Below are positions 4,715 through 31,400 of a stretch of 32,000 nucleotides of DNA, in pieces. Numbering within the stretch: the first letter of the stretch is position 1; each line of letters opens with the position of its first letter. The position numbers were made by a program, and so were the translations under genes. Under the pieces are notes generated by a model. That model worked only from the letters and a program-made list of their open reading frames with translations. It ran no database searches and was not told the DNA's origin. Location: assembly GCA_015232315.1 (NCBI GenBank), contig JADFZZ010000032.1:796-32795 (forward strand), given 5' to 3'. This stretch comes from SAR324 cluster bacterium. Its GTDB lineage: Bacteria; SAR324; NAC60-12.

Positions 4715-4755
4715 GATAATCCTCTAAATTGATGAAAGATAGTGATTTGATCAAA

Positions 4756-7058: not shown

Positions 7059-7080
7059 TTTCCGGCAAGGAGTAAAAAAA

Positions 7081-8496: not shown

Positions 8497-8648
8497 GAAA
8501 TTACTCCAATAATGTTTAGGTACGTGAACAGAATAGCATGCAAAAATTCTCCTGACAGATCTTCTGCCTGAAAATCGTAGAGACGTGCCAGAGCGTGCCT
8601 CTACAGTCCTGAAAAAGCAGTGTGGGGGAAGGATCTGCCGGAAACACC

Positions 8649-10094
8649 TCAAGCCCCCAAAATTGCACCACCACACACTCGGATCACTTCCCCGGTAACG
8701 CCCTGGGCTCCCGGTGTGGCCAGAAAAGCAATGGCCTGTCCTACGTCTTCCGGTTGGCCGCCTTGCCCCAGATTGTTCATACGGCGACCCACTTCACGGA
8801 TCGCTACCGGAATAGCCTCTGTCAGGCGAGTCTCAATGAATCCCGGTGCGATCGCGTTGACGGTGATTCCTCGATCAGCCACCAGATTGGACAAATGCCG
8901 GACGAATCCGATAATTCCCGCTTTTGAGGCAGAATAGTTGGTTTGTCCCCGATTGCCGGCAATCCCTGCAATAGAAGACAGACAAATGATCCGTCCTTCA
9001 TCTCTGAGAGTGCCTTTCAGCAATTGTTCCGTGATCCTCAGGACAGCGCCGAGATTGACATCGACAGCCTGATTCCAATATTCAGGAGTCATTCTGGCAA
9101 TGGTTTTGTCACGGGTGATGCCCGCGTTATGAACAACAATATCCACACCACCATACGTTTTTTTCAGATAATCTGAAATTTGCTGAGGCGCATCCGCTTG
9201 AGTGACATCCACCAGCAGAACATCACCATTGATTTCACGGGCAAGCTGACTGGCTGGTCCATCATCTGCCGGTCGGTCAAGACACACGACTCTTGCACCT
9301 TCCCGTGCCAGAATTTTTGCGGTGGCGGCACCAATCCCTCGGGCCGCGCCTGTCACCAGTGCGACCTTTCCATCGAGTTGTGAAGTCCAGGCGGGTTTGT
9401 CTTTGGAGGCCTTAGCCGTATTGCTGAGTGTGACAGGTTGCCCTGAGATATACGCGGATCGGGGCGACATGAAAAAACGTAAGGCGCCAGGCAGTCGTGA
9501 AACACAATCTTCGGAAACATAAATCAGTTGAGCGATGGAACCATTATTGCCGATTTCCTTGGCAATACTGCGGGTGAATCCGCTCAAGGCCCCCTGCACG
9601 GAAGCCCGTGAGATGTCGGCTTTGATGCTGGACGGATTGCATCCTACGATCACGATTCTCCCTGATTTTTCCATTTTGGTCGCAAGCGGATGAAAAAAAT
9701 CATACACCTGTTTGAATTCTTCAGGAGAAGAAATGCCGGTTGCGTCAAAAACAAGAACCTTGAATTTTTGATTTTCCGCGGGTTTTCCGGAAATATCGAG
9801 TTTCTGGATGGGTTGTCCGTAAGCTTCTGTAGGTTCGTTGAAGGCCGTCAGGCTTTTTGAGTCGCCCGCTACATGCAGGGACGCTCCGGCTTCTGCCAGC
9901 GTCGTGGCAATTTCCGAGGCGGCAAAACTTCCTGCGGCCACATAAATGCCAGCCTGCTGATTGGCCAGTATTCGAACTTTCCACGAGTCTTGATCGCGCT
10001 CAAGTGCCTGTGGCATGGGAATTGGCAGACCAAGAGATTTAATCCATTTCCGTGCTTGTGGATTTTTGCCTAGCTCAAGTAAGAAATCACTCAT
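8649..10094 (-). CDS. High-molecular-weight 3-oxoacyl-ACP/CoA reductase (FabG4-like, SDR)
   Basis: 481 aa; KVALVTGAARGIGAATAK, HNAG, SSIAGIAGNRGQTNYSASKAG and NAIAPGFIETRLTEAI in the C-terminal half, with an extra about 200-aa N-terminal domain as in HMwFabG proteins. Confidence 0.88.
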   Translation of the reverse strand: MSDFLLELGKNPQARKWIKSLGLPIPMPQALERDQDSWKVRILANQQAGIYVAAGSFAASEIATTLAEAGASLHVAGDSKSLTAFNEPTEAYGQPIQKLDISGKPAENQKFKVLVFDATGISSPEEFKQVYDFFHPLATKMEKSGRIVIVGCNPSSIKADISRASVQGALSGFTRSIAKEIGNNGSIAQLIYVSEDCVSRLPGALRFFMSPRSAYISGQPVTLSNTAKASKDKPAWTSQLDGKVALVTGAARGIGAATAKILAREGARVVCLDRPADDGPASQLAREINGDVLLVDVTQADAPQQISDYLKKTYGGVDIVVHNAGITRDKTIARMTPEYWNQAVDVNLGAVLRITEQLLKGTLRDEGRIICLSSIAGIAGNRGQTNYSASKAGIIGFVRHLSNLVADRGITVNAIAPGFIETRLTEAIPVAIREVGRRMNNLGQGGQPEDVGQAIAFLATPGAQGVTGEVIRVCGGAILGA

Positions 10095-12313: not shown

Positions 12314-12346
12314 TAATATTAAAAACATAAACATATGGAGGTTGAT

Positions 12347-12775
12347 ATGTGGAATAATTCACTCTCAAGAACAGTCAATGCAATGCTGTCGTTACAGGAT
12401 GCGCTTGATCGGGCACATGCCAATGATTTTTTCGGAGGCCACACCACCAGTCGCGGAGTGAATCCGCCTGTAAATCTGTTTGAAAAAGATGGAGATGTGG
12501 TGCTGGTTACTGAACTTCCTGGTGTGCATAAGGAAAACATCAAGATGGAGGTGAAGGAAAATATGATCCGGCTATCCGGTGAACGGAAACTGGATTATAG
12601 CGAAAATTGCAGTTGTCATCGCATGGAGCGTGGCGCATGGAAATTTGATCGATCCATCAAATTACCCTTCCGGGTTGATAATGATAAAATCAGGGCTGAA
12701 CTCAAAAACGGCTTGCTGGTGGTTTCTCTTCCCAGAGCCGAACAGGATAAACCACGGCAAATTGCCATCAATTGA
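12347..12775 (+). CDS. Hsp20/alpha-crystallin family small heat shock protein (1)
   Basis: PPVNLFEKDGDVVLVTELPGVHKENIKMEVKENMIRLSGERK...FDRSIKLPFRVDNDKIRAELKNGLLVVSLPR; GGAGG at 12337-12341, 5 nt before ATG 12347. Confidence 0.93.
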   Translation: MWNNSLSRTVNAMLSLQDALDRAHANDFFGGHTTSRGVNPPVNLFEKDGDVVLVTELPGVHKENIKMEVKENMIRLSGERKLDYSENCSCHRMERGAWKFDRSIKLPFRVDNDKIRAELKNGLLVVSLPRAEQDKPRQIAIN

Positions 12776-12816
12776 TAAATAATTATAATCACTGAACCAA
12801 TTGATCAGGAGGTCAT

Positions 12817-13224
12817 ATGAGTATCGAAAATAAAGATCTGAATAAAACAGAGCAGAATGTCACCAAAAAGGAATCTGGTGAGGAAAAAACTGTCGCAGGT
12901 CGATTTTATAGTCCACCGACAGATATCGTTGAAACCGATAAGTCGCTGATTGTGAATATGGACATGCCGGGAGTCTTGAAGGAAAATCTTGCTATCCGTC
13001 TGGAAAACCAGGTGCTGGAAGTGGAGGGACACATTGATTTCAGCCCGTATCAGGGATTGAATCCGATTTATACGGAATACAATGTTGGTCATTACACCCG
13101 CAAATTCACTGTATCCAGTTCGATTAATACGGATAAAATTGAAGCATCTCTCAATGATGGCGTTCTGACATTGACTTTGCCCAAGGCGGAAAAAGCACAG
13201 CCAAGACAGATTCAGATCAGTTGA
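12817..13224 (+). CDS. Hsp20/alpha-crystallin family small heat shock protein (2)
   Basis: PPTDIVETDKSLIVNMDMPGVLKENLAIRLENQVLEVEG...YTRKFTVSSSINTDKIEASLNDGVLTLTLPKAEKAQPRQIQIS; SD AGGAGG. Confidence 0.93.
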   Translation: MSIENKDLNKTEQNVTKKESGEEKTVAGRFYSPPTDIVETDKSLIVNMDMPGVLKENLAIRLENQVLEVEGHIDFSPYQGLNPIYTEYNVGHYTRKFTVSSSINTDKIEASLNDGVLTLTLPKAEKAQPRQIQIS

Positions 13225-13282
13225 CCATTGATAAGCCCTGTGCCTTGGAGCATGGGGCCTTCAGGAGAACAGGAGGATCTAT

Positions 13283-13474
13283 ATGAGAAAACAGCACGAG
13301 GAAAAGCAATTGACACATGAGGAAATTCAGCAGGCCATGCAAAATTTTCTCGCAAAAGGAAAATCCATTAAAATTCTGGCCCCACAGGAAATATACCAAC
13401 ATGATTATGTCGGTGGATACAACTGGGGACCTTATGAATCAATGGATTCTCTTGATTTTAATACGTTGTCATAA
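13283..13474 (+). CDS. 63-aa uncharacterised protein inside the Hsp20 operon
   Basis: MRKQHEEKQLTHEEIQQAMQNFLAKGKSIKILAPQEIYQHDYVGGYNWGPYESMDSLDFNTLS; strong AGGAGG Shine-Dalgarno; co-directional between hsp20 genes 2 and 3. Confidence 0.65.
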   Translation: MRKQHEEKQLTHEEIQQAMQNFLAKGKSIKILAPQEIYQHDYVGGYNWGPYESMDSLDFNTLS

Positions 13475-13533
13475 CAAAGGTTTCGCCTAATATTTCGAAG
13501 TATTATTCTTTACTTTTTATGCATGGAGGTCAT

Positions 13534-14055
13534 ATGTCATGGAAAGATTTGATCACATGGAATCAAAAAAAAGATGGATATAATAATCCTGTCAAAGTTG
13601 ACACTGCGATGGATCAACACCCGATGGTGATGTTTCATCGTGAAATGGACCGGCTATTTCAGGATTTTTTCAAGGATTTCTGGTCTCCCTCCACTTTCTG
13701 GGGCCGAGAGGGCGGCAGCATGTTTTCACCGAAACTGAATGTCAGTGAGGATGAAAAACAGATTGATGTGACTCTTGAAATTCCGGGGATGGACGAAAAG
13801 GACATTCGAATTTCCCTGAAGGATGACATTCTGTCCATCAAGGGAACGAAAAATCAGGAAAAAGAAGATAAGCAAAAAGAGTATCACCATATTGAGCGTT
13901 CCTATGGTTCGTTTCAACGATCCATTCAGTTGCCTTGTGAAGTACAGGCTGACAAAGTGCAGGCTTCCTTTAAAAAGGGCGTGTTGTCTGTGACGCTTCC
14001 CAAAGTTGAGAATGCACAATCCAGAGTACGAATCATCCCTGTTCAGGGCAACTGA
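13534..14055 (+). CDS. Hsp20/alpha-crystallin family small heat shock protein (3)
   Basis: FSPKLNVSEDEKQIDVTLEIPGMDEKDIRISLKDDILSIKGTKNQEKE...YHHIERSYGSFQRSIQLPCEVQADKVQASFKKGVLSVTLPK; GGAGG before ATG 13534. Confidence 0.95.
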   Translation: MSWKDLITWNQKKDGYNNPVKVDTAMDQHPMVMFHREMDRLFQDFFKDFWSPSTFWGREGGSMFSPKLNVSEDEKQIDVTLEIPGMDEKDIRISLKDDILSIKGTKNQEKEDKQKEYHHIERSYGSFQRSIQLPCEVQADKVQASFKKGVLSVTLPKVENAQSRVRIIPVQGN

Positions 14056-14171: not shown

Positions 14172-14233
14172 AGAACAAAAATCAGAATTCTGCTGACTTC
14201 AGATTTAATAATTGTCTTCAAAGAAAAGGTCGG

Positions 14234-15211
14234 ATGAAACGGTTACTCATTACATTGATGTTATTATCATGCTGCTGGCTGACAGCCATGGCGGAAGAAA
14301 CAGAAAAATCCAGTATTTTCTGGGAGGATCGGGAGATTGGTCAACTGGAAAATATGACGCCGGAATTGCTGGCCGCTGTCAAGCGCATGCATAACCGGAT
14401 TCCCTCGGTCGCAATTTCGACCACCACCATCGATGAAAATCTGAGTCCCAAATTAAGAAGGGTTCTGGTTTCCCGATTGTATGAAATATTGACCACGGAT
14501 GTGGCCTTGAAAATCGGAAAATGCGATGAATGCGGGCAGATACGCAGTGAGCTTTCCGGAAGTTTTCTCAAAATCAGTCGCGGCATCGCGGAAGATGCCT
14601 ACCGACGTTCCAAAGCACGTGAACTGAATGTCGCAGGATTTCTGGACATTTCTGTTTTCATGAGCGAACGGCAACTTTCTGTCACCTTCACCGCTTATGA
14701 TGCCCAGGATGGAAAAATTGCGTTTTCGGAGATCATCACCGGTGATCCGGGTGGACGAACAGAATATACCAATATCTATCTGGGACGATTCAACATTCCA
14801 ATTGCCATTGATGGCACATCCATTGATCATTCAGCCTATATTCTTGGAATGGAACTTTCCAAGCGCATATCGGAATCATGGTTGTTTGCAGGAAATGTGG
14901 CACTTCTGACAGACAATAACAGCAAGTTGACCACCAAATATCCTGACAGTATTTCAGGATTGATGATTGACGGCACTGCCATGTATGAGATGGTTCAGGC
15001 TCTTGGCGGTCGTGCGACAATCGCGGGTGTATTGGGCATGGGGCAATTATTGGCTCCCGCCTTGACGTCACCGTTTTATGCTAAAGTCGGAACAAAAATC
15101 GCGGTAGGTGAGAAACTCACCATTAATCTGCATTATATGTCATTCATCCCTGCCTTGACGACTCCTGAAACAACTGGTGCGACGTATATGGCTTTAGGAT
15201 GGCAGTGGTAA
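14234..15211 (+). CDS. Secreted protein, possible CsgG/FlgO-like or envelope assembly factor
   Basis: Signal peptide MKRLLITLMLLSCCWLTAMAEE; VAISTTTIDENLSPKLRRVLVSRLYEILTT...ELNVAGFLDISVFMSERQLSVTFTAYDAQDGKIAFSEII has CsgG/FlgO-like character; GKCDECG motif. Co-directional with the downstream genes (41-nt gap). Confidence 0.6.
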   Translation: MKRLLITLMLLSCCWLTAMAEETEKSSIFWEDREIGQLENMTPELLAAVKRMHNRIPSVAISTTTIDENLSPKLRRVLVSRLYEILTTDVALKIGKCDECGQIRSELSGSFLKISRGIAEDAYRRSKARELNVAGFLDISVFMSERQLSVTFTAYDAQDGKIAFSEIITGDPGGRTEYTNIYLGRFNIPIAIDGTSIDHSAYILGMELSKRISESWLFAGNVALLTDNNSKLTTKYPDSISGLMIDGTAMYEMVQALGGRATIAGVLGMGQLLAPALTSPFYAKVGTKIAVGEKLTINLHYMSFIPALTTPETTGATYMALGWQW

Positions 15212-15252: not shown

Positions 15253-16578
15253 ATGCGTCAATTTCGTAAATATGCGGCATGGCTGTTATTGACAGGAGGT
15301 CTCGCAGGATGTTCCTCCTCCGCTGAAGAGGTGGAAAGTGCCCCCAAAGTATCCAGACAAACCATTTATAATCAGTTCATTGATGGTGGAAAAAGCTCAA
15401 TCAGCGTTCTGGAGGAAACCATTGGTGGTAAAAAGCAGATCCGGATTGTGCTGAAAAAAGAGGGCGTTGATTCCAGCATCACACACCCTATCGACAATCC
15501 AAATTTCGTGATCGCAGTCCCACTGCATGATCCTACCAGTGCCAGAGTCGGTATTCAGACCATTGATTTTGAAAATGAAAAACGACGTTTGATTGAAGAA
15601 TTACTGCTGAGGTATATTCCACGTGATCGTTTCAATGTTTCCATTAAACTGTTTTGGGATGAAAAACGACTGGAAGAACTCCAACTCAAGGGGGTGCCAT
15701 TTCAAGAATCAATGGGAAGCACACAACCCGTCCCAACAGCATCAACCAAAGCGCCCGATAAATTGAATTATGAACTGGAACAGGCCGTGATTCGGCAGGA
15801 AACCAGGATTATGCTGGACAACACACTGCCAGCATATCAGGAAAAATTTGTCCGACTGCTACTGCCTTCCCAAACTTTTTTTGTCAAATCACGCGGAGAC
15901 ACGGCCACCGTGGAGCGTGTGATTTTCCCCAAGGCATCACCCGAAAGTATTGCGCCTGAGGAAGAACGACTGATCCGTGAAAAAGTACAGAAAATGATTC
16001 AGGAATATCTGAGTCAGGATGATTTTGTGGTCAATGTCCGGCTCAGTATGAAAGGTGGACAAAACATTCAGAGCATCACTGGACAGGGCGATCAGATTTC
16101 TGTGGCCTCCATGTCCACTGCAACGGATCAGGTGAGTGACCGCATGAATATCAATATCAATGTTCTGCTCAATGATCTGACCTCTCCGGATACCGATGAG
16201 TTTCTCCGCAACACGATTCCCTATGCCATTCACATGGACATGGCGGATGGCGACCAGTTGACCATCACCCGCAAACGGTTTCCGGAAAAAGATTATGGTC
16301 AGATTTCGCCACAACAGGTTGCGCAACTGGAAGAATACAAACGGGAAATTCTTACCGCTTTTGAATCAGGGAATTATGCAGGTGGCCTGGATCTGGTTAA
16401 AAAGGCCATGAAGATCAGTGTAAAACGGGACGACCGCCTGAGTTTGCTAAAAATGCAGGGGTCGCTGTATTTTCTGCTTCAGGACAAACAGCGTGCTCGC
16501 GAAACATGGGAGCATTTGATCAAACTTGATCCGGAAAACGAAGAAGCAAAACAAATGCTTATGAATTTGGTGAAATGA
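15253..16578 (+). CDS. Lipoprotein with repeated FliF/YscJ-collar-like modules and C-terminal TPR-like repeats
   Basis: Lipobox LAGC in MRQFRKYAAWLLLTGGLAGCSSS; DDFVVNVRLSMKGG...ININVLLNDLTSPDTDEFLRNTIPYAIHMDMADGDQLTI; TPR-like SLYFLLQDKQRARETWEHLIKLDPENEEAKQ. Confidence 0.6.
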   Translation: MRQFRKYAAWLLLTGGLAGCSSSAEEVESAPKVSRQTIYNQFIDGGKSSISVLEETIGGKKQIRIVLKKEGVDSSITHPIDNPNFVIAVPLHDPTSARVGIQTIDFENEKRRLIEELLLRYIPRDRFNVSIKLFWDEKRLEELQLKGVPFQESMGSTQPVPTASTKAPDKLNYELEQAVIRQETRIMLDNTLPAYQEKFVRLLLPSQTFFVKSRGDTATVERVIFPKASPESIAPEEERLIREKVQKMIQEYLSQDDFVVNVRLSMKGGQNIQSITGQGDQISVASMSTATDQVSDRMNININVLLNDLTSPDTDEFLRNTIPYAIHMDMADGDQLTITRKRFPEKDYGQISPQQVAQLEEYKREILTAFESGNYAGGLDLVKKAMKISVKRDDRLSLLKMQGSLYFLLQDKQRARETWEHLIKLDPENEEAKQMLMNLVK

Positions 16579-17855
16579 CCATGAGACTGAAACGATTTGG
16601 ACTGACATTGTTATGTTTGGGACTGACCGGAATGTTTTTCGGAACATTTTACGCGGCAGAACCGGAATCCTCTGCTGTAACCGCAGAAATGCCTAGCAGA
16701 CCTTCCATTTTGCCTGATTCCGCTATGGATATTCCGGCGGAAATGCCAGTTGTGCCAGAAGCACCCGCGACGACTGCGGTGCCTGTTACATCAACCGCGC
16801 CCTCAAAGGCCGCGGACTCTACTGTTGTGCCCCCTGCGCCCGTAAAAGCAGGCAATGCTTCTGCTCCAACGATGCCAGTGCAGGAACAGCCAAGACGGCC
16901 CGAACCACGAAACACCAACGAAATTATTTCCGCGCCCTTTGAACAATTGAAAAAACTGTATGGCAAACCTGAGGGGACAACCCTGGAACAACCAGCAGAA
17001 GTGGACCAGAAACCAAAACAACCTGAAGTTGTTGAAACCAAAACGAAGTCACCGATTGAAGAAATGGATTTGCCTTCGCTTTCAGAGCAACAGGAAACGG
17101 AACGGAATCTTGAGTTCAAACTGGAAACAGCCCTGAAAGAATTATTGCTGGACAAATATGTTCAGGTCAAAGTGATTGTCCATTATCTCGTCAATACTGT
17201 TCCAATCACTGAAAGCAACAAGCAAATATCACAAATGCGGCTTCCGGGATTTAAAAATCAGGTGTGGGTGCCGATTGATCAGAAAAAAGTAACAGGCCTG
17301 GTGCATCGGTTGACACGTTACAACAGTATTTTTGTGGTGGTCAATCAGCCGGTATCACCGTTTGATCTGGAAGTCCTGCGACAAAAACTGAATGCAAAAA
17401 TCGCTGAAATTGATCTGGAAACCAATGATTTTCTTAAAGTCGCTTATGTTCCACTGGCAGAAATGCCAGGAACTGAAAAGCCAATGGCATCCCAACCGGA
17501 AACTCAGTCAGAGGCCACTGATCAGGTTGAAAAAATGCCTGAACCTGAAATAACGCCAGAACCGCCCAAACTTGTTTCAGCCAATGAACAACGCGATGTC
17601 GAAGTAAAATCAGCCAAGCAATTGCTCGAAGCACGCACCGCGTTTTTCAGGAATGACCTGAAAGAAGCGTTGGATAAAATCAATAAAGCCATTGAAATGA
17701 ATCCTGACTCCGCACAGGGCTATGCCATGCTGGGGTCGGTGTATTATCGCCTGAAATGGTATGGACAGGCAAAAAAACACTGGAAAAAATCTCTGGAACT
17801 GGAGCCTGACAATCCTTTGATTGCTCAGTATCTCGAACGATTGGAGAACGAATGA
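16575..17855 (+). CDS. Secreted or membrane-anchored protein with Pro-rich linker, collar-like domain and C-terminal TPR-like repeats
   Basis: N-terminal hydrophobic segment LTLLCLGLTGMFFGTFYAAEP; long P/A/E-rich linker; YVQVKVIVHYLVNT...MRLPGFKNQ...SIFVVVNQPVSPFDLEVLRQKLNAKIAEID; TPR SAQGYAMLGSVYYRLKWYGQAKKHWKKSLELEPDNPLIAQYLERLE. Start overlaps the upstream stop (ATGA). Confidence 0.6.
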   Translation: MTMRLKRFGLTLLCLGLTGMFFGTFYAAEPESSAVTAEMPSRPSILPDSAMDIPAEMPVVPEAPATTAVPVTSTAPSKAADSTVVPPAPVKAGNASAPTMPVQEQPRRPEPRNTNEIISAPFEQLKKLYGKPEGTTLEQPAEVDQKPKQPEVVETKTKSPIEEMDLPSLSEQQETERNLEFKLETALKELLLDKYVQVKVIVHYLVNTVPITESNKQISQMRLPGFKNQVWVPIDQKKVTGLVHRLTRYNSIFVVVNQPVSPFDLEVLRQKLNAKIAEIDLETNDFLKVAYVPLAEMPGTEKPMASQPETQSEATDQVEKMPEPEITPEPPKLVSANEQRDVEVKSAKQLLEARTAFFRNDLKEALDKINKAIEMNPDSAQGYAMLGSVYYRLKWYGQAKKHWKKSLELEPDNPLIAQYLERLENE

Positions 17856-19744
17856 TGGCACGCTATCTTAAAACAGGTTGGATCTGTCTGTTGCTGAGCC
17901 TATGCGTTTCAGGGCATGTATGGGCTGAAGAACGCATCACATCCCTGCCTGCGAAACAGTATGAAATTGAATCGGCCATTCACAACAGCCTGCGGCATTA
18001 TATGGAACCACAGGACTATGTGATCAAAGTCTGGCTGAAGGGAAAGAAAAAAACCATTGAGACCTTCCCTTTCAAAAATTTCAGTTCATCAACGGATGAA
18101 GTCCTGCCCGGATTCGGTACACCGCCCTCGCCTGTAACCAACGAAGACCCTGTCGCCGTTGAAGGCGAAACTTACTGGGTTGTGGAACAGATGCGTGTGG
18201 ATTTGATTCTTTACAAAGAAATATCTCCATCGCTGGCCACCTATATCACAGAGATCATTCCCGTCTTAAGCGGAATGAATTCTCAACGTGGCGATGTATT
18301 CAATTTTATGCCGATCAAACCCAAACCACTTGAAAGCGACAGTCCCAGACCGTTGAATCCTGATGGCAGTGCCATGGATGGTGCGTCGTCATCTTCAGAT
18401 CAGGCTGTCGCCACACCTGAACCGGAACCAACCCTTGAACAAATGCTGATTCCGCAAACACCAATGGAATGGCTACAGGCAGGGGTGAGTTTGCTGTTAT
18501 TGCTCCTGATCCTCTTTATTTTCTGGAGAATCATTAAATTACAGAAACAGCAGAAAGCCGCGCAGGCCGCCCAGGAAAAATCCGCTGTGGACATCCGGGA
18601 TCTGGTGCCTTCTCCGCAAAACGCCATCGCGACGATTCAACAGGCTCGTCAAGATCTGGTGCGCCGGCAGGATGAGCATGTTCAGGAAATATTGCTGGTT
18701 GAAGAAAACAACCGGCTTTTGCAGGAAATCATCAAACAACTGGTAGGACGTGAAGACTGGAAACAGCATCTGATTGAGGAAATGACACGGGATAAACAGT
18801 CCACCGAAGCCTTCACACGGTTGCTGGCCATGATGGGACCCCAGACGGCCCGCCGGCTGTTTTCCGAACAGTTGGGACATGAGGCCTATCTGGATCTGGA
18901 ACAACTGGCCCGGGATCTTTCGTTCACACCACAAGAGGCCAATTCGATTCTGAAGGATATCTGGACATTTTTATTCACTAAAAAGCTGACCTTGCCTGAA
19001 AAAGTAGCGACGGATCCTTTTGGTTATCTGTTGAAATTGTCTACCGGGCAAATCGCGTTTTTGCTCAAGGATGAACCGGTCAAAATCAAGGCACTGGTTG
19101 TCAGTCGCCTGAACAGTGAACAGGCAACAGAAGTGATCGGACATTTCCCGAAAGATGAACGGACTCAGGTCATGCTGCATCTGGGCAAGATGGAGGAACT
19201 TCCTCTCGAACTGGTGTCGCAGGTCGCTTATAATCTGGCTGACAAGGTACGAAGCCTGCCTGACAGCAATACTGTCGCGGTCAATGGAGTGAATCTCGTG
19301 ATTGATGTCCTGGGTGAGGTCGAACATGGAGTTCGGCAGGACATCATCAACGGCTTGCGGATTTCTGATCAGCGTTTGAGTGATATGGTGGAAAGCCGGT
19401 GTTTCATTTTTGAATCCATTCCGTTTGTACCCAAAGAAGTTTTGATGGAAGTGGTCCGTCGTTTACCGCTGGATGATGTCATTATTGCGATCTCCGGTGC
19501 GACAAAAGAAATCAAGGAAGCCGTCATCCTGTGTTTTCCTGAGCAAAACCGTCAGGCGATTGTATCTGCCTTGAAAGCAAAAACACCATCCCCGGATGAC
19601 ATTCGGGAAAAACGCAGGGTGTTTGCCCAATCCATGCGTGGCATGGCAGAAAACAACAGGGTCGATTTGAAAGAAATCAACACCGCGTGGGCCCAACAGC
19701 ACGATGCTGTTCCAGCCCTGAATTTTGAACAGCAGGAGTCATAG
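17852..19744 (+). CDS. Chimeric membrane protein: FliF-collar-like periplasmic domain, one TM, and FliG-like middle and C-terminal domains
   Basis: Signal peptide 1-25; MRVDLILYKEISPSLATYITEIIPVLSGMNSQRGDVFNF; TM about 208-226 (LQAGVSLLLLLLILFIFWRI); FliG-like DEPVKIKALVVSRLNSEQATEVIGHFPKDERTQVMLHLGKMEEL...LVIDVLGEVEHGVRQDIINGLRISDQRLSDMVESRCFIFESIPFVPKEVLMEVVRRLPLDDVIIAISGATKEIKEAVILCFPEQNRQAIVSAL. ATGA overlap with the upstream gene. Confidence 0.75.
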   Translation: MMARYLKTGWICLLLSLCVSGHVWAEERITSLPAKQYEIESAIHNSLRHYMEPQDYVIKVWLKGKKKTIETFPFKNFSSSTDEVLPGFGTPPSPVTNEDPVAVEGETYWVVEQMRVDLILYKEISPSLATYITEIIPVLSGMNSQRGDVFNFMPIKPKPLESDSPRPLNPDGSAMDGASSSSDQAVATPEPEPTLEQMLIPQTPMEWLQAGVSLLLLLLILFIFWRIIKLQKQQKAAQAAQEKSAVDIRDLVPSPQNAIATIQQARQDLVRRQDEHVQEILLVEENNRLLQEIIKQLVGREDWKQHLIEEMTRDKQSTEAFTRLLAMMGPQTARRLFSEQLGHEAYLDLEQLARDLSFTPQEANSILKDIWTFLFTKKLTLPEKVATDPFGYLLKLSTGQIAFLLKDEPVKIKALVVSRLNSEQATEVIGHFPKDERTQVMLHLGKMEELPLELVSQVAYNLADKVRSLPDSNTVAVNGVNLVIDVLGEVEHGVRQDIINGLRISDQRLSDMVESRCFIFESIPFVPKEVLMEVVRRLPLDDVIIAISGATKEIKEAVILCFPEQNRQAIVSALKAKTPSPDDIREKRRVFAQSMRGMAENNRVDLKEINTAWAQQHDAVPALNFEQQES

Positions 19745-19765: not shown

Positions 19766-20725
19766 ATGAAAGACACCATTGGCACACTTCTGGGCTTTTT
19801 AATTGGTATTTCCCTCGTCTTGTTTGGAATCACCTGGCCTGATCATTTGTCCAACTATTACATGTATCAGTTGCGCGAATATGAAATGGCCACAAAGCAG
19901 ATGAAAAAAGACGGGGTGCCTCGCAACCAGATTCAGGAACTTGAACAGAAATTCTCAGAGTTTCAGGATTCATGGATCGGAACCATGTCCCGCTTTATTG
20001 ATCTCAAATCGTTTTTGATTGTGATGGGCGGCGCCTATTCCGCGATGATGGTCGCGTTTCCGTTTGACAAGGCGATGGGGGCTTTTGTGTTCATTGTCAG
20101 GGTGTTTGCGTCATCCGTGAAGAAGGAAGAATTTCTGGATGTGTATCACACCGTTCTCAAACTGGCTGAAAAACGAGTGAACAATGCCATCCTCACCGAT
20201 GAGGATATCAATGCTATTCATTCAGTGGATCTAAAACGTTGGGTTCAGGATTTCATTGTGGTCGATATCGTTGAAGAAAACATGATTGAGGAAATTGTTC
20301 GATCGGAAATTGAAATGTACAATTATCGTTCTTTTGAAGAAATTGATGTCCTCAATTTTCTTGGTGCCGCGTCTCCCGCTTTTGGAATGCTCGGTACCGT
20401 GGTTGGTCTGATTCTGATGCTGGGAAATACGGGTGGTGATGTAGCCGGTGTGATGGGGGGAATGTCCATTGCGTTGATCACGACATTGTATGGAGTGTTT
20501 CTGGCCCAGATCATGTTTTTGCCGATAGCATCCAAACGCTATCAAATGAAAGAGTCGCACATCATGTTGCTGGAAATGATCAGAGAAGGTCTGCTCTATC
20601 TCAAACGGCGTGAAATTCCTGATACGATCTCCCAGGATTTAATCATTTATCTGCCTCTCAAAATGCGTCAGAAAATCACTGAAGAAAAAATGGCGGCGAT
20701 GCGTGAGGGTAATTTGGGATTGTGA
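19766..20725 (+). CDS. MotA/ExbB-family proton-channel (stator) subunit, divergent MotA
   Basis: FIDLKSFLIVMGGAYSAMMVAFP; FLGAASPAFGMLGTVVGLILML...MSIALITTLYGVFLAQIMFLPIASK, matching MotA TM2-TM4; 319 aa. Confidence 0.9.
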   Translation: MKDTIGTLLGFLIGISLVLFGITWPDHLSNYYMYQLREYEMATKQMKKDGVPRNQIQELEQKFSEFQDSWIGTMSRFIDLKSFLIVMGGAYSAMMVAFPFDKAMGAFVFIVRVFASSVKKEEFLDVYHTVLKLAEKRVNNAILTDEDINAIHSVDLKRWVQDFIVVDIVEENMIEEIVRSEIEMYNYRSFEEIDVLNFLGAASPAFGMLGTVVGLILMLGNTGGDVAGVMGGMSIALITTLYGVFLAQIMFLPIASKRYQMKESHIMLLEMIREGLLYLKRREIPDTISQDLIIYLPLKMRQKITEEKMAAMREGNLGL

Positions 20726-20728
20726 TCT

Positions 20729-21376
20729 ATGGCCAATCGAAAAGACGCATCAACCGAAACCCCTGCATGGGTGGTTTCTTTTGCCGATCTGATGAGCTTG
20801 CTGTTCAGCTTTTTTGTGCTGCTCACCACACTTTCCACTCAGCCGAAAAATTGCGAGGGCATCCGTGAATATATGGAAAACAACAAGGCGTTTTTTAAAA
20901 ACTATGAACTTCGATCCACTAAACTGAGTTGCATTGTTTCCTTACCTCAAGATTATCTGTTCAAATCAGGACAAGGCAAAATCCAGCCTTCGGCCTTCAA
21001 AGCGCTCACTCCATTTTTTGAGAAAATCCGCGATCTGCCGGAACATCGTGAAGATCTGTTGATTGTGGAAGGTCACACCGACAATGTGCCCATCCATACC
21101 CGTGAATTTCCCAGCAATTGGGAACTCAGCTCGGCCAGAGCCACCAATATTTCCGTATTCATGATGGAAAAACTCAAATTTGCCCGCGAACGACTGTCCG
21201 TTTCGGCCTATGCGGATTCGCGTCCCAAAACCCCCTATGTAGACACTTACGGCAAACCATTAACCGGCAAGGACCTCCAGAATGCTCGACAAACCAACCG
21301 TCGAGTTGAAATCATTCTGACAACACCCCCCAAATCCCTTGAGGAAACCACCATGCTGTTTGATGGTCGGGAATAA
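20729..21376 (+). CDS. MotB-like stator subunit with OmpA/peptidoglycan-binding domain
   Basis: WVVSFADLMSLLFSFFVLL (conserved Asp TM); LFKSGQGKIQPSAFKAL...LLIVEGHTDNVPIHTREFPSNWELSSARATN; 215 aa, 3 nt after the MotA-like stop. Confidence 0.92.
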   Translation: MANRKDASTETPAWVVSFADLMSLLFSFFVLLTTLSTQPKNCEGIREYMENNKAFFKNYELRSTKLSCIVSLPQDYLFKSGQGKIQPSAFKALTPFFEKIRDLPEHREDLLIVEGHTDNVPIHTREFPSNWELSSARATNISVFMMEKLKFARERLSVSAYADSRPKTPYVDTYGKPLTGKDLQNARQTNRRVEIILTTPPKSLEETTMLFDGRE

Positions 21377-21842
21377 GGCCCTCATCTGACCTCATCAATA
21401 CTGTGTGAATTATTTTTTCACGATAATGAGGCCATATTATGCAATATTAACTCATGTGATGCAATAAACTTTTTTAAATAAAAAATATGAGTTTTCTCAT
21501 CACAACGCCGCTAACGCAGAGGGCCAATGGCTGACAGTTCGCACTCTGAATCATTTCGGATTGAGGAAACAAAAAACTTTGATTTCAGCCGGATATATTG
21601 TCAGTTACCACAAAGTGCTGTCCATTGAAAACAAGCCTGGCAGGCGTAAAGAGCATTCAAAAAAAACTCCTTGACGAAGGGCTAGTGAATACGCTACATG
21701 CATATCTAATATCTAACAAAGGCCAGGGGAGGATCTTTGTTTACAACGATTTCCCAAATCGGGGGGGATTAACCAGCCCCCTGTAAACATTGGCAATTGT
21801 GAGATATTGTTTATTTTTTTAACTAATCTCTTTGGAGGAAGT

Positions 21843-22427
21843 ATGAAAATGTTCAAACAATGGAAAAAAAGATGGGCTGGATTCAGTCTTGTAGAAATTG
21901 TAATCGCCATCGCGGTCATCGGGATCATGTCTGCGGCGTCAGTGCCCCTGATCAAAAGCACACTCGATAAATCAAAAAATTCCCGCGCAAAAAGCGAACT
22001 GGAAGAAATACGAAATGCGTCTGTGTCATTTTATGGCGATACCTTTCAGGTTCCCGGTAATATTGGATGTACCAAGACAGCCACAACCCATCTGCTGACA
22101 GATACAGCAGCGGCAAAAATTGACATGTCCAAAGCAGGGACTGTGACATCTGATGATCTGGATGCGCATTTCAATACGAACTGTACAGGTGCCAATGCCG
22201 GTAAATATACAGACAATAGCTTGGGTGGCGCCTGGAGAGGCCCATACATGGAAGCTGATCGCTATGATCCATGGCAAAAATCTTATGTATTGGTCACAAA
22301 TACATTTGGAACTACTGATACCGCATCCGGTTATGCTCTTTCCGGTGGAACCGATGAGCAGGTCAACACTGCCAAGGCTACAGCCGCAAGTACCAGTGAT
22401 GTATATATCAAAGTCAGTCTGAAATAA
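21843..22427 (+). CDS. Type IV pilin / type II secretion pseudopilin (GspG-like)
   Basis: Class III signal MKMFKQWKKRWAG|FSLVEIVIAIAVIGIMSAASVPLIKSTLDKSK, with GGAGG Shine-Dalgarno and ATG at 21843. Confidence 0.88.
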   Translation: MKMFKQWKKRWAGFSLVEIVIAIAVIGIMSAASVPLIKSTLDKSKNSRAKSELEEIRNASVSFYGDTFQVPGNIGCTKTATTHLLTDTAAAKIDMSKAGTVTSDDLDAHFNTNCTGANAGKYTDNSLGGAWRGPYMEADRYDPWQKSYVLVTNTFGTTDTASGYALSGGTDEQVNTAKATAASTSDVYIKVSLK

Positions 22428-22440
22428 TTTTTCCTCATAA

Positions 22441-22465
22441 GGCGGGTCACTCCCGCCTTTCTTTT
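22441..22465 (+). terminator. Rho-independent terminator after the pseudopilin gene
   Basis: GGCGGG-TCACT-CCCGCC followed by TTTCTTTT. Confidence 0.8.
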
Positions 22466-25341
22466 AGCTGACGATTCAGCTCTTCAAAGTGATTTCCCAT
22501 CCAACTCAACAGTTTCTTCTCATGCGGTGGAAAGCGTGTGTCAGACATGATGAATGTCTGGAAAATTTGAAGATACATGGCTTTTTCTCCGGCTTTCAGC
22601 ATTTCGACCTCCATTGCGCTCAGAAATACAGGATTGTATTTGGGCGGTGATGAATTTTGCAGGATGTTCCTGATTAAATCTTTCAGGTGATCCAACTGGT
22701 CCGTATACAGAAAATCCAGAAACAGAAATTCATCCTGAAACTTTTTTGGGGGAATATCCTTTCGGACTAGCTCACGATACAATGTGACAGCTTCCAGTTT
22801 ATCCCACATTTGTGCCATATTTCTGGGGTGCGTGATTTTTTTGAATTGATGATCAATCTCATTCCAGTTGGAATTTTTGCGGGCAATTCGCAGGGAATCT
22901 GTCAGCCATTCCAATTTTTCTGAAGGAATTGGCGGAGCATTTTTAAAATAATCTGTTTGAGCTCTGGAAAAATTTTCTGGTTCCAGAATTTCCTGATAAA
23001 ATGAAATAGCATTTATAAATGACCAGAACAAATCCACTTCCTGACTCAGAAACAACGCTTTTTCCGCACTGTTATCAACCAGAGGGAAAAAATATGAATT
23101 GGGATTCACATCTTCCAGAATAGGGCGTAGACTCTGGGTTGAAACAATAAAATTCTGAGGGCCGAACAAACGGGTATCCCCCTTGAATTTCAAAAATTCC
23201 TGAGCAATCTCTGGTTCTCGTTCAAAACGATCAATGGCATCCAGATTGAAATCAGTGTTGCCTGCAACAATCACATAATTTGCTTCACCAGCCAGATATA
23301 TTTTTGCGTAGGGAAAACGATTATCCAGAGCCTTGATAATGGTCAGCATGAGTTCTGTGTTGAAGGAATAACCATGGACCCATTGGACCAGTAAGCCTTC
23401 TGGTTTTAGAAATCGTTGGATGTGCTCGTAGAATTCTTCGGTGAACAGGCTCGAAACACCACTGACCCAAGGATTTGATGGTTCTGAAATGATAAGGTCA
23501 TATTGTCTGTTGGCCTGATAGAAATAGGTTTTGGCATCATCAAAAATAGGACGGATTTTGGGACTGTCATACACATTTCGATTATAAGGATAGAAATTTT
23601 TTGCCAATTCATACATCTGTTCTTCAATTTCGATCAAATCCAGATGTTTTAACAAGGGGTCGGATAGCAGATAGTGTGCAGACATACCACTGCCCAACCC
23701 GATCATTGCGGCGTCATAAGGCTGATTCATCGCAGCCATCGGAACAAACGCGGCAGCGGCCTGAGTATATTCATCTTCAGATATGGTGCCTTTCAATCCG
23801 ATACTCGCATCAACCTTGCCATTTGTTGCGATCATTGACCTGAATGGATTGAACGTGAATGAGATGGTTGCTGTTTTTCCATCCTTGACGAGTATTTGAT
23901 GAAAATCTCCGGCATTCAGCTTGCCACGAAAAACACCTATTGTGGTAAGATTCGGGTCAAGTTTGATATGCAATACAGGAATAAAGACCAGCACAGAAAC
24001 GCAGAGTGTCGCAATGAACTTCCATCGGGAAAGCTTATAGGCACCCAGCAGCACAAGTCCCAGACCGATATCAATCAAAGCTCCTGAGGCAATGGTGTAT
24101 TTGATCTGAAAATTCGGCAATAGCAATAACCCTCCCAGAGAGGCGCCAAGTATGGCTCCTATCGTATTCCAGCCATATACAAATCCAGTGTATTTTTCAT
24201 TGCGTGTAAAATTGATCAGATAATAAGTGATCAATGGCAGTGTCATTCCCGCAAAGAAACTGGTGGGTGCCATCATCAATAGGCAGATCAGATATTTGAA
24301 TATGGAATAGACTGGATAGGCGAGTTCTGTTTTTCTGAATACAGAATGTGAGTCGCTGATCGCGTAAAAAAACGGCTCGTAAAAATAGATGCTGCTCAAC
24401 GCAAACGCCCCCATGAGAATCTGGATGAAAGCCAACGTATGCGCGATGTTTCGTGAAGAGTCAATCAGCTTGCGGGCATAACCGCCTCCCAGGGCCAACC
24501 CCAGGATGAACGCGGAAATCATGATATCAAACGAATGGGTTGAAGATCCCAGCAACAACCCCAGAAGCCTGATCCAGCCAACTTCGTAAATGAAGGATGA
24601 AAACCCTGTCAGACCGCTGATCAACAACCATAGTCCAATGGTGCGCTGATCCGGAAGTTCATGTGAAATTTCCTTGTGAGATTCCGCACCGGAAAAAGAT
24701 TCTGTTATTTTGGGGCCAATGATTTTATCAGCTTTTTTGGCGATGAAATAAAACATCAATGCAATCAGTACATTGGAAGAACCAGCAATGGCGAGAGTTC
24801 CTATGGTTCCCATTTCCGGAATGAGCAGATAGGAAGTCGCCAGAATTCCAATGGCGGCACCCAGAGAATTGGTGAAATATAACACAGGCAGTGAAGAACG
24901 TCCTTCATCTCTGCTGACACGAATGACACCCACTGTGATGAATGGAAAAGTCATTCCAAGCAGGATCGCGGTCGGGAGCGTCATCAGCATGGAGATCAGC
25001 ACCTTGGTCAGATTGGCAAACCAGAAAGACGAAAAATATACATTGGCGGCTTCATAAAACCATTGGGTACAGACTAGATAAATTCCGTGGAAGACAAAAC
25101 CTGAAACGCCCACCAGCAACTCAATGGCAGCATAGACATAAAATGGATTCCGGATATTCCGACAGAGTCGTCCTGCCAGAAACGACCCGATGCCGAGTCC
25201 ACCCATAAAAATGGAAAGTGTCAGGATCTGACCATAAAACGAATGTCCGAGAAATAATTTAAGATACCGGGACCACAGTGATTCATAAATAAGACCAACA
25301 AATCCTGAAACAACGAACAGACCATAAATCAGGCGAACCAT
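22447..25341 (-). CDS. Fused MFS-like membrane domain and spermidine-synthase-like methyltransferase-fold protein
   Basis: Multiple TMs starting SGFVGLIYESLWSRYLKLFLGHS; C-terminal AAMIGLGSGMSAHYLLSDPLLKHLDLIEIEEQMYELAKNF...YDLIISEPSNPWVSGVSSLFTEEFYEHIQRFLKPEGLLVQW; ATG start 25341 (the ORF track uses TTG 25347). Confidence 0.85.
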   Translation of the reverse strand: MVRLIYGLFVVSGFVGLIYESLWSRYLKLFLGHSFYGQILTLSIFMGGLGIGSFLAGRLCRNIRNPFYVYAAIELLVGVSGFVFHGIYLVCTQWFYEAANVYFSSFWFANLTKVLISMLMTLPTAILLGMTFPFITVGVIRVSRDEGRSSLPVLYFTNSLGAAIGILATSYLLIPEMGTIGTLAIAGSSNVLIALMFYFIAKKADKIIGPKITESFSGAESHKEISHELPDQRTIGLWLLISGLTGFSSFIYEVGWIRLLGLLLGSSTHSFDIMISAFILGLALGGGYARKLIDSSRNIAHTLAFIQILMGAFALSSIYFYEPFFYAISDSHSVFRKTELAYPVYSIFKYLICLLMMAPTSFFAGMTLPLITYYLINFTRNEKYTGFVYGWNTIGAILGASLGGLLLLPNFQIKYTIASGALIDIGLGLVLLGAYKLSRWKFIATLCVSVLVFIPVLHIKLDPNLTTIGVFRGKLNAGDFHQILVKDGKTATISFTFNPFRSMIATNGKVDASIGLKGTISEDEYTQAAAAFVPMAAMNQPYDAAMIGLGSGMSAHYLLSDPLLKHLDLIEIEEQMYELAKNFYPYNRNVYDSPKIRPIFDDAKTYFYQANRQYDLIISEPSNPWVSGVSSLFTEEFYEHIQRFLKPEGLLVQWVHGYSFNTELMLTIIKALDNRFPYAKIYLAGEANYVIVAGNTDFNLDAIDRFEREPEIAQEFLKFKGDTRLFGPQNFIVSTQSLRPILEDVNPNSYFFPLVDNSAEKALFLSQEVDLFWSFINAISFYQEILEPENFSRAQTDYFKNAPPIPSEKLEWLTDSLRIARKNSNWNEIDHQFKKITHPRNMAQMWDKLEAVTLYRELVRKDIPPKKFQDEFLFLDFLYTDQLDHLKDLIRNILQNSSPPKYNPVFLSAMEVEMLKAGEKAMYLQIFQTFIMSDTRFPPHEKKLLSWMGNHFEELNRQLKERRE

Positions 25342-25595
25342 AGACAATTCTCAAGAGAAGAGGATATTAAAAATAAAAATGCATAGCAGATGTTATTCAT
25401 GACGGTCAAGTGCGATTCTTTTCAAACAGAATATTGCTATCCGTCGCAGAATGTATTAGTTGTTCCCTGCTGGTAATCTGGACTTTCCCTATGGGATTCT
25501 GAGCTATTTTCCCGGAGGGGTAAATGAATCATCCTTAGCGTGAAAAATTAAAATCCATTCGTGTAACGTGTTCATGTTTTATTAATCTTTATTCA

Positions 25596-28333: not shown

Positions 28334-28349
28334 CCATCATAGGAATAAT

Positions 28350-29051: not shown

Positions 29052-29065
29052 TCCTGAGCTGCTTA

Positions 29066-30760: not shown

Positions 30761-30786
30761 TTTTTTTAAGGGGGGAGAAACTATAA

Positions 30787-31395: not shown

Positions 31396-31400
31396 GTTTT

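Follow-up and report, generated by a model that had tools for sequence, protein, structure and literature searches.

Copies of an RBM3-like module in three consecutive proteins of a SAR324 gene cassette with a FliG fusion and MotAB-type stator genes

What do three consecutive genes of a SAR324 cluster bacterium encode when their products share similar segments, and are these segments copies of one ring-building domain? The genes lie in a stretch of 32,000 nucleotides (assembly GCA_015232315.1, contig JADFZZ010000032.1, positions 796 to 32,795 of the forward strand), hereafter the window. They form part of a cassette in which open reading frames (ORFs) 0, 1, 2 and 3, MotA and MotB are six closely packed genes on the + strand. 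An earlier note on this DNA had described the similar segments in ORF1, ORF2 and ORF3 and had suggested duplication and stacking of one ring-building domain, as in the ring proteins of FliF, secretins and type III secretion systems. The segments belong to a module that very probably descends from the same source as ring-building motif 3 (RBM3) of FliF, and in ORF3 this module is joined to FliG domains. We read the cassette as a rotor-like envelope machine made of flagellar parts, without the flagellar export apparatus, and give this reading a probability of about 0.6; we infer that the machine assembles rings, that these stack and that they rotate.

Module copies in ORF1, ORF2 and ORF3 and their relation to FliF

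Pairwise BLASTP among the three proteins matches only the tetratricopeptide repeat (TPR) tails of ORF1 and ORF2 (E 4e-6). The similarity of the modules is therefore invisible at the level of single sequences, and family profiles were built from homologue searches and from extra ORF1 and ORF2 sequences recovered from syntenic loci. With these profiles, hhalign gives a signal between the periplasmic regions of all three proteins, a comparison that the earlier note had proposed, and the recurrence itself holds, as all the strings quoted for it are present. The region that had been delimited ends at position 18310, which is residue 153 of ORF3 and the end of the ORF3 periplasmic module. The segments named for ORF1 are found in the protein, but the listing of its module 1 was incomplete, because the part at amino acids (aa) 180–228 (...SRGDTATVERVIFPK) had been overlooked. 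In this module DRFNVSIKLFWDE forms β1 (aa 125–137) and β2-α2-β3 follow at aa 180–228. As an insert splits module 1, ORF1 carries two full modules, which brings the total for the three proteins to four. The profile comparisons make it highly probable that ORF1–ORF3 carry four paralogous copies (2+1+1) of one α-β-(hairpin insert)-β-α-β module.

The two ORF1 modules (aa 105–232 and aa 233–348) align with each other over 111 columns (hhalign 99.0%, E 2.2e-18). Module 2 of ORF1 also aligns with the ORF3 module, aa 25–162 (97.7%, E 1.5e-12); here DDFVVNVRLSMKG pairs with DYVIKVWLKGKK, and ININVLLNDLTSPDTDEFL...GDQLTI pairs with MRVDLILYKEISPSLATYI...RGDVFNF, which are exactly the segments singled out in the earlier note. 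For module 1 the values are 88.7% (E 2.5e-6) against the ORF3 module and 98.8% (E 6e-17) against distant relatives. The direct comparison of the ORF2 module (aa 168–300) with ORF3 alone is marginal (32.9%, E 4.6e-4), collinear over 117 columns and with LPGF placed on LPGF. Profile A7, which was built from ORF3-type modules, the modules of ORF1 and 16 distant relatives and is free of ORF2 sequences, aligns with ORF2 over 122 columns at 92.2% (E 5.7e-7), and a profile of distant relatives from outside SAR324 alone gives 77% (E 2e-5). Early, shallow profiles of 9–24 sequences gave 5% for ORF2, and the support came after divergent loci and distant relatives had been added. Negative controls, in which modules were compared with TPR regions and with the N-terminal domain of ORF1, gave at most 1% with E above 0.05. 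The latter domain stays at or below 1% against every module and is unrelated to them.

The family shares a signature in which β1 reads [FY]-h-V-x-V, the hairpin tip LPG[FL]P, β2 h-x-V-x-h-L-h-D, and β3 with the end of the module RGD-x-h-x-h...FP. LPGF is invariant in the ORF2 family and in the ORF3 family. In one clade of related loci (L025, L026, L028 and L033, ~7040–9090) ORF1 is split into two genes, one for a lipoprotein of ~215 aa with the N-terminal domain and a TPR of its own, the other for a two-module protein of ~450 aa. Both inserts of the two-module protein carry KLPGF, which ties the ORF1 modules directly to those of ORF2 and ORF3. Duplication, as the earlier note had suggested, is borne out by the tandem copies in ORF1, by three RBM3 modules in the ORF1 of another SAR324-type locus (L034:6571-8181) and by tandem RBMs inside the FliG fusion of some distant relatives.

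The fold of the module was predicted with AlphaFold2 (AF2). The model of ORF3 aa 20–170 (m8835148d3b35) consists of H13–28, E37–50, a disordered stretch at 51–86, E87–101, H107–120 and E130–135. It has strands of 14–15 residues and a 36-residue loop of low confidence, and the predicted local distance difference test (pLDDT) score of its core is 85–90. The model of ORF2 aa 160–305 (m654ceb69cc71) consists of H10–31, E36–62, a turn, E71–97, H103–120 and E127–132, with two 27-residue strands joined at the LPGF turn and a pLDDT of ~70. In both models DSSP gives the order H-E-E-H-E of the ring-building-motif fold, and both have a long β-hairpin (collar) insert between β1 and β2. The models thereby predict one shared fold, not unrelated folds, for the ORF2 and ORF3 modules in the comparison with FliF RBM/β-collar that the earlier note had recommended. 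The ORF1 modules are assigned to this fold through their full-length sequence alignment to ORF3, and their inserts are shorter.

In Foldseek searches of the PDB with the ORF3 model, ranks 1–17 are S-ring chains of FliF and rank 18 is FliF-YlxF (E 6e-6 to 3e-3). The ORF2 model matches FliF RBM3/collar at E 1e-6 to 3e-5, with SpoIIIAG at rank 14 (E 6.7e-5). Every PDB match at E ≤1e-3 is the RBM3/β-collar S-ring of FliF, from Vibrio or Salmonella, except SpoIIIAG for ORF2. The strong FliF matches of the two models have E 1e-6 to 5e-4 at a Foldseek probability of 1.0 and extend over 141–166 columns against RBM3/collar chains of 144–165 residues, at full length. Against the ORF3 model SpoIIIAG appears at rank 26 (E 0.1), and PrgK/SctJ match at E 5e-3 to 0.4.

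Sequence families lead to the same protein. Nine of 11 ORF1 relatives match the Pfam family PF08345 (YscJ_FliF_C) at E ≤1, and the three that were looked at closely score 28.4, 27.8 and 25.4 bits against a gathering score of 23.8. These matches involve the C-terminal half of the Pfam model and fall on β2-α2-β3 of ORF1 module 1. The single sequences of ORF1, ORF2 and ORF3 from the window lie below the Pfam thresholds for the FliF module, and the link of ORF1 to FliF is one at the level of the family. A search of all PDB sequences with profile A7 finds the FliF RBM3 fragment 9YH6 over its full length (E 4.5e-7) and Vibrio FliF (E 7.8e-5), and nothing besides FliF below E 0.8. A profile of the whole of ORF1 gives a result dominated by designed TPR proteins, and PF01514 (YscJ_FliF) has no match in ORF1, ORF2 or ORF3. 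Together, the Foldseek, PF08345 and profile A7 results argue strongly that the module is a homologue of FliF RBM3 with a collar-type insert, and we hold this homology to be very likely. Of the parallel that the earlier note had drawn with FliF, secretins and type III secretion, FliF stands, by fold and by sequence, and specifically its RBM3; SctJ matches weakly, and no secretin-type match was seen.

The FliG part of ORF3, the stator and a possible machine

ORF3 corresponds, on one natural polypeptide chain, to the core of the flagellar rotor, with a periplasmic RBM3 module, a transmembrane (TM) helix and cytoplasmic FliG_M and FliG_C domains. Both FliG domains exceed their Pfam cut-offs (FliG_M, PF14841, 54.0 bits, cut-off 25; FliG_C, PF01706, 52.3 bits, cut-off 23.3). 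Aligned with Thermotoga maritima FliG (1lkv; E 1.4e-14), ORF3 has CFIFES opposite MFVFED, which is the MFxF hinge. The FliG equivalog TIGR00207 is missed, with 74.1 vs 226.7 bits, and only profile positions 106–281 are matched. Some relatives of ORF3 have weak or faint precomputed matches to PF14842 (FliG_N). In place of the FliM-binding motif EHPQ(R) of FliG, ORF3 reads DEPV(K) and so does not have the motif.

The stator proteins encoded by the cassette are likewise recognizable by their families. MotA matches Pfam MotA_ExbB (PF01618) at E 2.7e-21 and MotA/PomA structures in the PDB at E 1e-25 to 1e-22 (MotA 6ysf, E 1e-25). Its best NCBIfam families are MotP, PomA and MotA (E 1e-35 to 1e-27), with ExbB/TolQ ~25–30 orders of magnitude weaker. 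MotB matches MotB_plug (PF13677, E 2.2e-10), OmpA (PF00691, E 7.3e-13) and the MotB/MotD/MotS families of NCBIfam. The equivalog cut-offs for MotA and MotB are all missed by far, for example with 122 vs 394 bits. As classified from sequence, the stator is of the flagellar MotA/PomA/MotP class and, by these cut-offs, is not an orthologue of a named flagellar stator. In the MotA linked to the cassette, a conserved periplasmic insert of ~45 aa (WPD..SNYY.Y...) separates TM1 from TM2, and a conserved C-terminal tail ends in SGDLGL. Insert and SGDLGL are seen in the window, L003, L025, L026, L028, L033 and L034, and neither is present in the MotA of the distant systems L037–L039 described below. 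Zorya (ZorAB) was considered and rejected: PADLOC finds no ZorA match, and there is generic MotB/OmpA similarity to ZorB only.

Interaction of MotA with FliG follows a rule of charge pairing, E98–R281 and R90–D288/289 (PMC12505986). The equivalent of R281, R567, is invariant in the ORF3 family, and an acidic cluster at the position of E98 is conserved in the cassette-linked MotA family.

In the machine that we propose, copies of ORF3 would assemble by way of RBM3 into a ring in the inner membrane, as those of FliF do with about 33–35 subunits. The ring would face MotA5B2-type stators encoded by the cassette itself with an array of FliG_C domains, and ion flow via MotAB would turn or load it. 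The RBM3 modules of ORF2 and ORF1 may form more rings, coaxial with the ORF3 ring or stacked on it. The TPR tails, the lipid anchor of ORF1 and the β-barrel-like ORF0 would anchor these rings to the outer membrane. What results would be a basal-body-like machine without rod, export or switch, no flagellum but a separate rotor or force-transducing device, whose output may lie in the periplasm or the outer membrane.

The cassette in the window and in other genomes

The features of the cassette are collected in Table 1. The start of ORF0 at 14231 was chosen by its signal peptide, the mechanical ORF beginning at 14006. ORF0 consists of a conserved N-terminal periplasmic domain and a C-terminal β-barrel-like region whose last residue is aromatic (GWQW). 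The protein from the window has no match in Pfam or NCBIfam, and its homologue in L001 has a faint match to PF13505 (OMP_b-brl). ORF1 has the lipobox LAGC, with Cys20 kept in at least 90% of its relatives. Pfam finds in ORF1 and ORF2 only TPR repeats at the C-termini, and the two TPR domains align at hhalign 97.2% (E 3.6e-11). The hydrophobic N-terminus of ORF2 (aa 10–28) may be a signal peptide or a signal anchor, and a Pro/Ala/Glu-rich linker of ~130 aa follows it. ORF3 has a signal peptide cleavable between VWA and EE, and is 100% identical to NCBI HQM11_17135, from a metagenome-assembled genome (MAG) of the SAR324 cluster. The stop of ORF1 overlaps the start of ORF2 by 4 bp, as does the stop of ORF2 the start of ORF3, and short gaps lead to MotA and MotB.

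Table 1 Features of the cassette, in positions of the window
Feature	Position	Strand	Description
ORF0	14231..15211	+	Putative outer-membrane component, first cassette gene; signal peptide, from ORF and translation
ORF1	15253..16578	+	Lipoprotein, 441 aa: N-terminal domain, two RBM3-like modules, C-terminal TPR
ORF1 N-terminal β-rich domain	15340..15564	+	aa 30–104
ORF1 module 1	15565..15948	+	aa 105–232: α1-β1 (..DRFNVSIKLFWDE), insert, β2-α2-β3 (..RIMLDNTLPAYQEKFVRLLLP..SRGDTATVERVIFPK)
ORF1 module 2	15949..16296	+	aa 233–348: ..DDFVVNVRLSMKGG.. insert ..ININVLLNDLTSPDTDEFLRNTIPYAIHMDMADGDQLTITRKRFPE
ORF1 C-terminal TPR domain	16315..16575	+	aa 355–441; Pfam TPR_2 E 1.5e-4
ORF2	16575..17855	+	426 aa: hydrophobic N-terminus, linker, one RBM3/collar-like module, second linker, TPR
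ORF2 module	17076..17474	+	aa 168–300: α1, long β-hairpin (YVQVKVIVHYLVNT...RLPGFKNQ...SIFVVVNQ), α2, β3 (DFLKVAYVP)
ORF2 C-terminal TPR domain	17577..17852	+	aa 335–426; Pfam TPR_2 E 3.6e-10, TPR_11, TPR_1
ORF3	17852..19744	+	630 aa: signal peptide, RBM3-like module, TM helix, helical linker, FliG middle and C-terminal domains
ORF3 periplasmic module	17924..18337	+	aa 25–162: ..DYVIKVWLKGKKK.. loop with LPGFG ..MRVDLILYKEISPSLATYITEIIPVLSGMNSQRGDVFNFMPI
ORF3 TM helix	18458..18547	+	~aa 203–232; hydropathy scan, position conserved in relatives
ORF3 FliG_M and FliG_C	19049..19666	+	aa 400–471 and aa 502–605; Pfam
MotA-type stator A subunit	19766..20725	+	319 aa; Pfam MotA_ExbB
MotB-type stator B subunit	20729..21376	+	215 aa; plug and OmpA-like peptidoglycan-binding domain

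Homologue searches gave 283 matches for ORF3, 44 for ORF1, all of them SAR324-type, and five for ORF2. The ORF3 matches listed, 120 of the 283, are full-length fusions. A search of GTDB species representatives with the ORF3 profile gave 27 loci; where their record names are informative they are SAR324, 'Deltaproteobacteria' or 'Ca. Lambdaproteobacteria' MAGs, the others being generic. In every one of these 27 SAR324-type loci that has enough flanking sequence, ORF0, ORF1, ORF2 and ORF3 occur in that order. Besides the window, MotA and MotB adjoin the cassette in seven distinct genome loci, in three gene arrangements. They are directly downstream in the window, in Deltaproteobacteria bacterium TL4 (L003) and in L034, and directly upstream in L025, L026, L028 and L033. 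Beyond ORF0–ORF3 and MotAB, no neighbour is conserved across the loci. In all, 39 other loci were fetched (L001–L040, one being the same contig as the window), and Pfam-annotated gene tables were made for 13. In these 13 loci, genes for export gate, rod, hook or FliM/N are absent from the ±8–10 kb around the cassette, and fliPQR, flhAB and fliE were found neither there nor among the scanned ORFs of the window of at least 120 aa.

Fusions of this kind extend beyond SAR324. When 1.84 billion representatives were searched exhaustively with a profile, 3052 matched, 792 of them below 1e-10. Among the best 150 of the 3052, 108 proteins are 520–780 aa long, and 104 of these 108 consist of signal peptide, RBM, TM helix and FliG. 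Five distant loci were sampled. Three of them carry the fusion (FliGx), an outer-membrane protein (OMP)-like gene of ~370 aa, a TPR lipoprotein and the two stator genes MotA and MotB, with the gene order rearranged, and sit among housekeeping genes; in two of these three (L037 and L038, 361 and 376 aa) the OMP-like gene is homologous to ORF0 (E 1e-10 and 1e-3). The remaining two loci combine FliGx with a TPR lipoprotein and a small OMP-like gene. The distant relatives go by MAG names such as Pseudomonadota, Gammaproteobacteria and Deltaproteobacteria bacterium, and in databases the fusion family goes by 'FliG C-terminal domain-containing protein', 'flagellar motor switch protein FliG' or 'hypothetical'.

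In the distant systems the TPR proteins have no RBM, which marks the stack of modules over three proteins, as judged by these comparisons, as a lineage-specific elaboration by SAR324 of a wider system. The wider and apparently undescribed unit consists of RBM3-TM-FliG, a TPR lipoprotein, an OMP-like protein and MotAB. More tentatively, and at somewhat less than an even chance, the cassette could represent, in SAR324, a rotary machine that is autonomous, non-flagellar, driven by MotAB and widespread in uncultured Proteobacteria-like lineages. The core of such a machine would, with the same reserve, be an RBM3-TM-FliG ring that has no type III export gate, rod or switch and that TPR lipoproteins link to an outer-membrane barrel. 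The individual parts (RBM3, FliG domains, MotAB, TPR) are of known kinds, and their combination was not found in the literature searched. The publications found on FliG paralogues and fusions, on non-flagellar FliG/MotA and on FliG of SAR324, with subscription papers outside the scope, do not describe the architecture. What appears to be new is the natural fusion RBM3-TM-FliG, the placement of RBM3 modules on TPR proteins, a dedicated MotAB and the lack of type III export.

Several genes near the distant and related systems are recorded here as observations. Large proteins flank FliGx in three loci: one of 1253 aa with TPR and a transglutaminase core (L037:15221-18982), an unannotated one of 1472 aa (L039:3-4421) and one of 945 aa with TPR (L040:3846-6683); all three could be parts of the machine. 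Beside the TPR-FliGx pair of one locus only (L036:8456-8797, −) is a divergent gene with a PilZ domain. YcgR, in c-di-GMP control, acts on FliG/MotA, and by analogy the PilZ gene could hint at c-di-GMP control of the FliGx system. In TL4, proteins of 789 and 693 aa follow right after MotB (L003:11296-15904), with CarboxypepD_reg and faint Calx-beta/LapA matches. They are not conserved elsewhere, and are possibly surface or adhesin-like cargo.

Immediately upstream of ORF0 the window has three tandem Hsp20/α-crystallin genes (12335–14055, +; E 3e-20 to 5e-25). A gene for a GspG-like pseudopilin (N_methyl, T2SSG; 21807–22427, +) comes after MotB, and the sole strong terminator-like hairpin of the region (22439–22459) comes after the pseudopilin gene; a pseudopilin adjoining the cassette was found in no other locus. 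A 966-aa protein is encoded at 22447–25347 (−), with a spermine/spermidine synthase domain in its middle (aa 533–685) as its sole Pfam match. Farther downstream, a gene cluster (28326–31775, +) encodes a protein like DUF3334/CheX, a response-regulator-like protein of 564 aa, an acyltransferase and a protein with a STAS domain. The window also has a MinD-like and MinC gene pair (3935–5493, −) and a 441-aa protein with a TerB-like region and an S24 (LexA-type) peptidase domain (5733–7058, +).

Alternative explanations and known systems

A number of observations weigh against a rotor-like machine. FliG_N was not detected in ORF3, and a profile of ORF3 aa 262–400 finds nothing in the PDB. The charges of the torque helix are partly kept, S572 and A573 standing at the positions of D288 and D289, and the cassette MotA has Val at the position of R90, with Arg one residue earlier. 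With the E98 cluster and R567 conserved and the equivalents of R90 and D288/D289 changed, the pairwise alignments tentatively suggest that one charge pair, E98–R281, is kept and that the other, R90–D288/289, is lost on both sides. Confidence in the AF2 models is moderate (mean pLDDT ~70), the one for ORF2 being built from six sequences, and the Foldseek TM-scores of 0.40–0.48 are modest and the root-mean-square deviations large, because hairpin orientation and loops differ. In an abundant marine SAR324 clade there is no MotAB within 10 kb of the cassette. Finally, the window contains a gene for a 561-aa flagellin (1674–3359, −; Flagellin_N E 5e-28, Flagellin_C E 9e-20), which means that the host organism is probably flagellated, and flagellar motility genes have been reported in SAR324 genomes (PMC9031357).

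The last of these points bear on the explanation that survives best besides our own, in which the cassette provides accessory parts of the host's real flagellar motor. ORF1 and ORF2 would then be periplasmic scaffold or disk rings, comparable to PflA/PflB and FlgP of Campylobacterota, and ORF3 a membrane-anchored FliG paralogue in an extra ring that positions or engages stators. TPR-containing periplasmic proteins are stator scaffolds in the motors of Campylobacter and Helicobacter, and scaffolds of this type are what ORF1 and ORF2 would resemble. The flagellar class of the cassette MotAB, the flagellin gene 12 kb upstream of the cassette, the reported motility genes and the marine cassettes without MotAB of their own nearby would also agree with it. 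However, no flagellar structural gene adjoins the cassette in the 13 Pfam-annotated loci of the 39 others, a scan of 34 other loci (L001–L035) with the flagellin of the window finds no homologue, and the FliM-binding EHPQ reads DEPVK. With its own RBM3 module and TM helix, ORF3 has the build of a rotor core, not of a scaffold. A dedicated and distinctive MotA paralogue accompanies the cassette in three gene orders, and the same five-gene unit recurs among housekeeping genes in distant lineages. We consider an accessory role in the flagellar motor unlikely.

Somewhat less probable still is a static or transiently loaded force transducer across the envelope, which would work in the manner of Tol-Pal/TonB and without continuous rotation. 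MotAB would pull the FliG-like domain of ORF3, and the RBM and TPR proteins would relay the work to ORF0, for transport, outer-membrane maintenance or movement of surface proteins. The OMP-like partner and the TPR lipoprotein are conserved in SAR324 and in the distant systems, the canonical charge pairs of the torque helix are incompletely conserved, and the cassette has no rod or other evident rotating axle, all of which would suit a transducer. Against this, RBM3 modules form rings, and a closed FliG ring facing 5:2 stators has the geometry of rotation; to our knowledge FliF RBM3 and FliG occur only as parts of a rotating ring. Pfam and NCBIfam scans found no TonB/TolA-like extended periplasmic transducer in the cassette.

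Least credible is a generic small α/β fold with similar amphipathic patterns, without common ancestry or relation to FliF, for although BLASTP finds no module similarity, the direct comparison of the ORF2 and ORF3 profiles is marginal (33%, E 4.6e-4) and Foldseek also lists OsmC/Ohr folds (E ~0.01–0.1), hhalign reaches 88–99% with clean negative controls, the ORF1 relatives examined in detail exceed the gathering score of the Pfam FliF model, the profile search of the PDB is significant for FliF only, the LPG[FL] tip and the RGD-x-h-x-h...FP ending are common across the family, and the FliF matches are 3–4 orders of magnitude better than those to OsmC; chance resemblance is essentially excluded.

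A rotor-like machine, our preferred reading, bears on the origin and modularity of the flagellar motor. If the machine is indeed autonomous, the rotor-stator core of the flagellum would occur naturally as a module standing by itself, either through exaptation from the flagellum or, with lower likelihood, by descent from a pre-flagellar rotor. SAR324 ranks with the most abundant bacterial lineages of the dark ocean, and this very abundant deep-ocean group would then carry an unrecognised envelope motor, which, given that abundance, could play into attachment to particles, surface movement or the physiology of the outer membrane. The cassette is also a compact natural case of ring-building motifs duplicated and redistributed over proteins, with four RBM3 copies on three translationally coupled proteins and a copy number that differs between clades. 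Present names such as 'FliG...', 'tetratricopeptide repeat protein' and 'hypothetical' can inflate the counts of 'flagellar motility genes' in metagenomic surveys.

Among known systems, the RBM3/β-collar of FliF (PF08345; 6SD1, 7CG7, 8Z4D, 9YH6) has the same α-β-(long hairpin)-β-α-β order as the cassette modules, and in both the hairpin tip is poorly ordered. Sequence homology is detectable, including the ...RGD-x-h-x-h...F end of β3, and the ORF3 module precedes a TM helix that leads to FliG, as RBM3 of FliF precedes TM2 and the FliG-binding tail. Unlike FliF, ORF3 has no RBM1, RBM2 or second TM helix, and has a cleavable signal peptide in place of TM1. The cassette has no export gate to house, its module is duplicated and spread over three proteins, the modules of ORF1 and ORF2 are joined to TPR domains, and the hairpin tip carries LPG[FL]P, which FliF does not have. 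ORF3 was accordingly rejected as a FliF orthologue, with its one RBM, its one TM helix, no PF01514 match and no export-gate genes beside the cassette in the 13 annotated loci or among the scanned window ORFs.

The rings of SpoIIIAG/SpoIIIAH and SctJ/SctD resemble the cassette in having RBM-type modules on several consecutive proteins that stack or nest. The RBM of SpoIIIAG also has a β insert (ORF2 model against 5WC3, E 6.7e-5), and SctJ is a lipoprotein, as is ORF1. However, the fold matches are weaker than those to FliF, PF01514 has no match, and these systems, which are not rotary, lack both FliG and MotAB. Neither SctJ/YscJ nor SpoIIIAG was retained as the best match, since FliF (E 1e-6) is ahead of SpoIIIAG (6.7e-5) and of PrgK/SctJ (5e-3 to 0.4). 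The PflA/PflB and FlgP scaffolds share with the cassette periplasmic TPR proteins and a lipoprotein that are encoded with MotAB stators or act on them. In contrast to the cassette proteins, they have no RBM3 modules and need a complete flagellar basal body, and the likeness is one of TPR repeats.

With flagellar FliG and MotA5B2 the cassette shares FliG_M and FliG_C with the MFxF hinge, a MotA of the MotA/PomA/MotP class, a MotB with plug and OmpA-like domain and, as it appears, a charge pair of the E98–R281 type. It differs in the loss of the EHPQ motif, in the changed equivalents of D288/D289 and R90, in the 45-aa periplasmic insert and conserved C-terminal tail that its MotA adds, and in that its proteins miss all NCBIfam equivalog cut-offs. 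The flagellar rotor-stator also has FliM, FliN, FliF, export apparatus, rod and hook, which the cassette does not.

The nearest counterparts of ORF3 in construction are engineered. Full-length FliF of Salmonella and Vibrio has been fused to full-length FliG in the laboratory (for example 8Z4D/8Z4G; PMC11481574, PMC10941966, PMC6079021). As in these fusions, ORF3 has a module of the MS ring and FliG on one polypeptide, and 8Z4D is a top match for both of its halves. ORF3 occurs naturally, is much shorter and has one RBM, a new helical linker and no FliG_N that could be detected; its family comprises more than 100 clusters at 50% identity.

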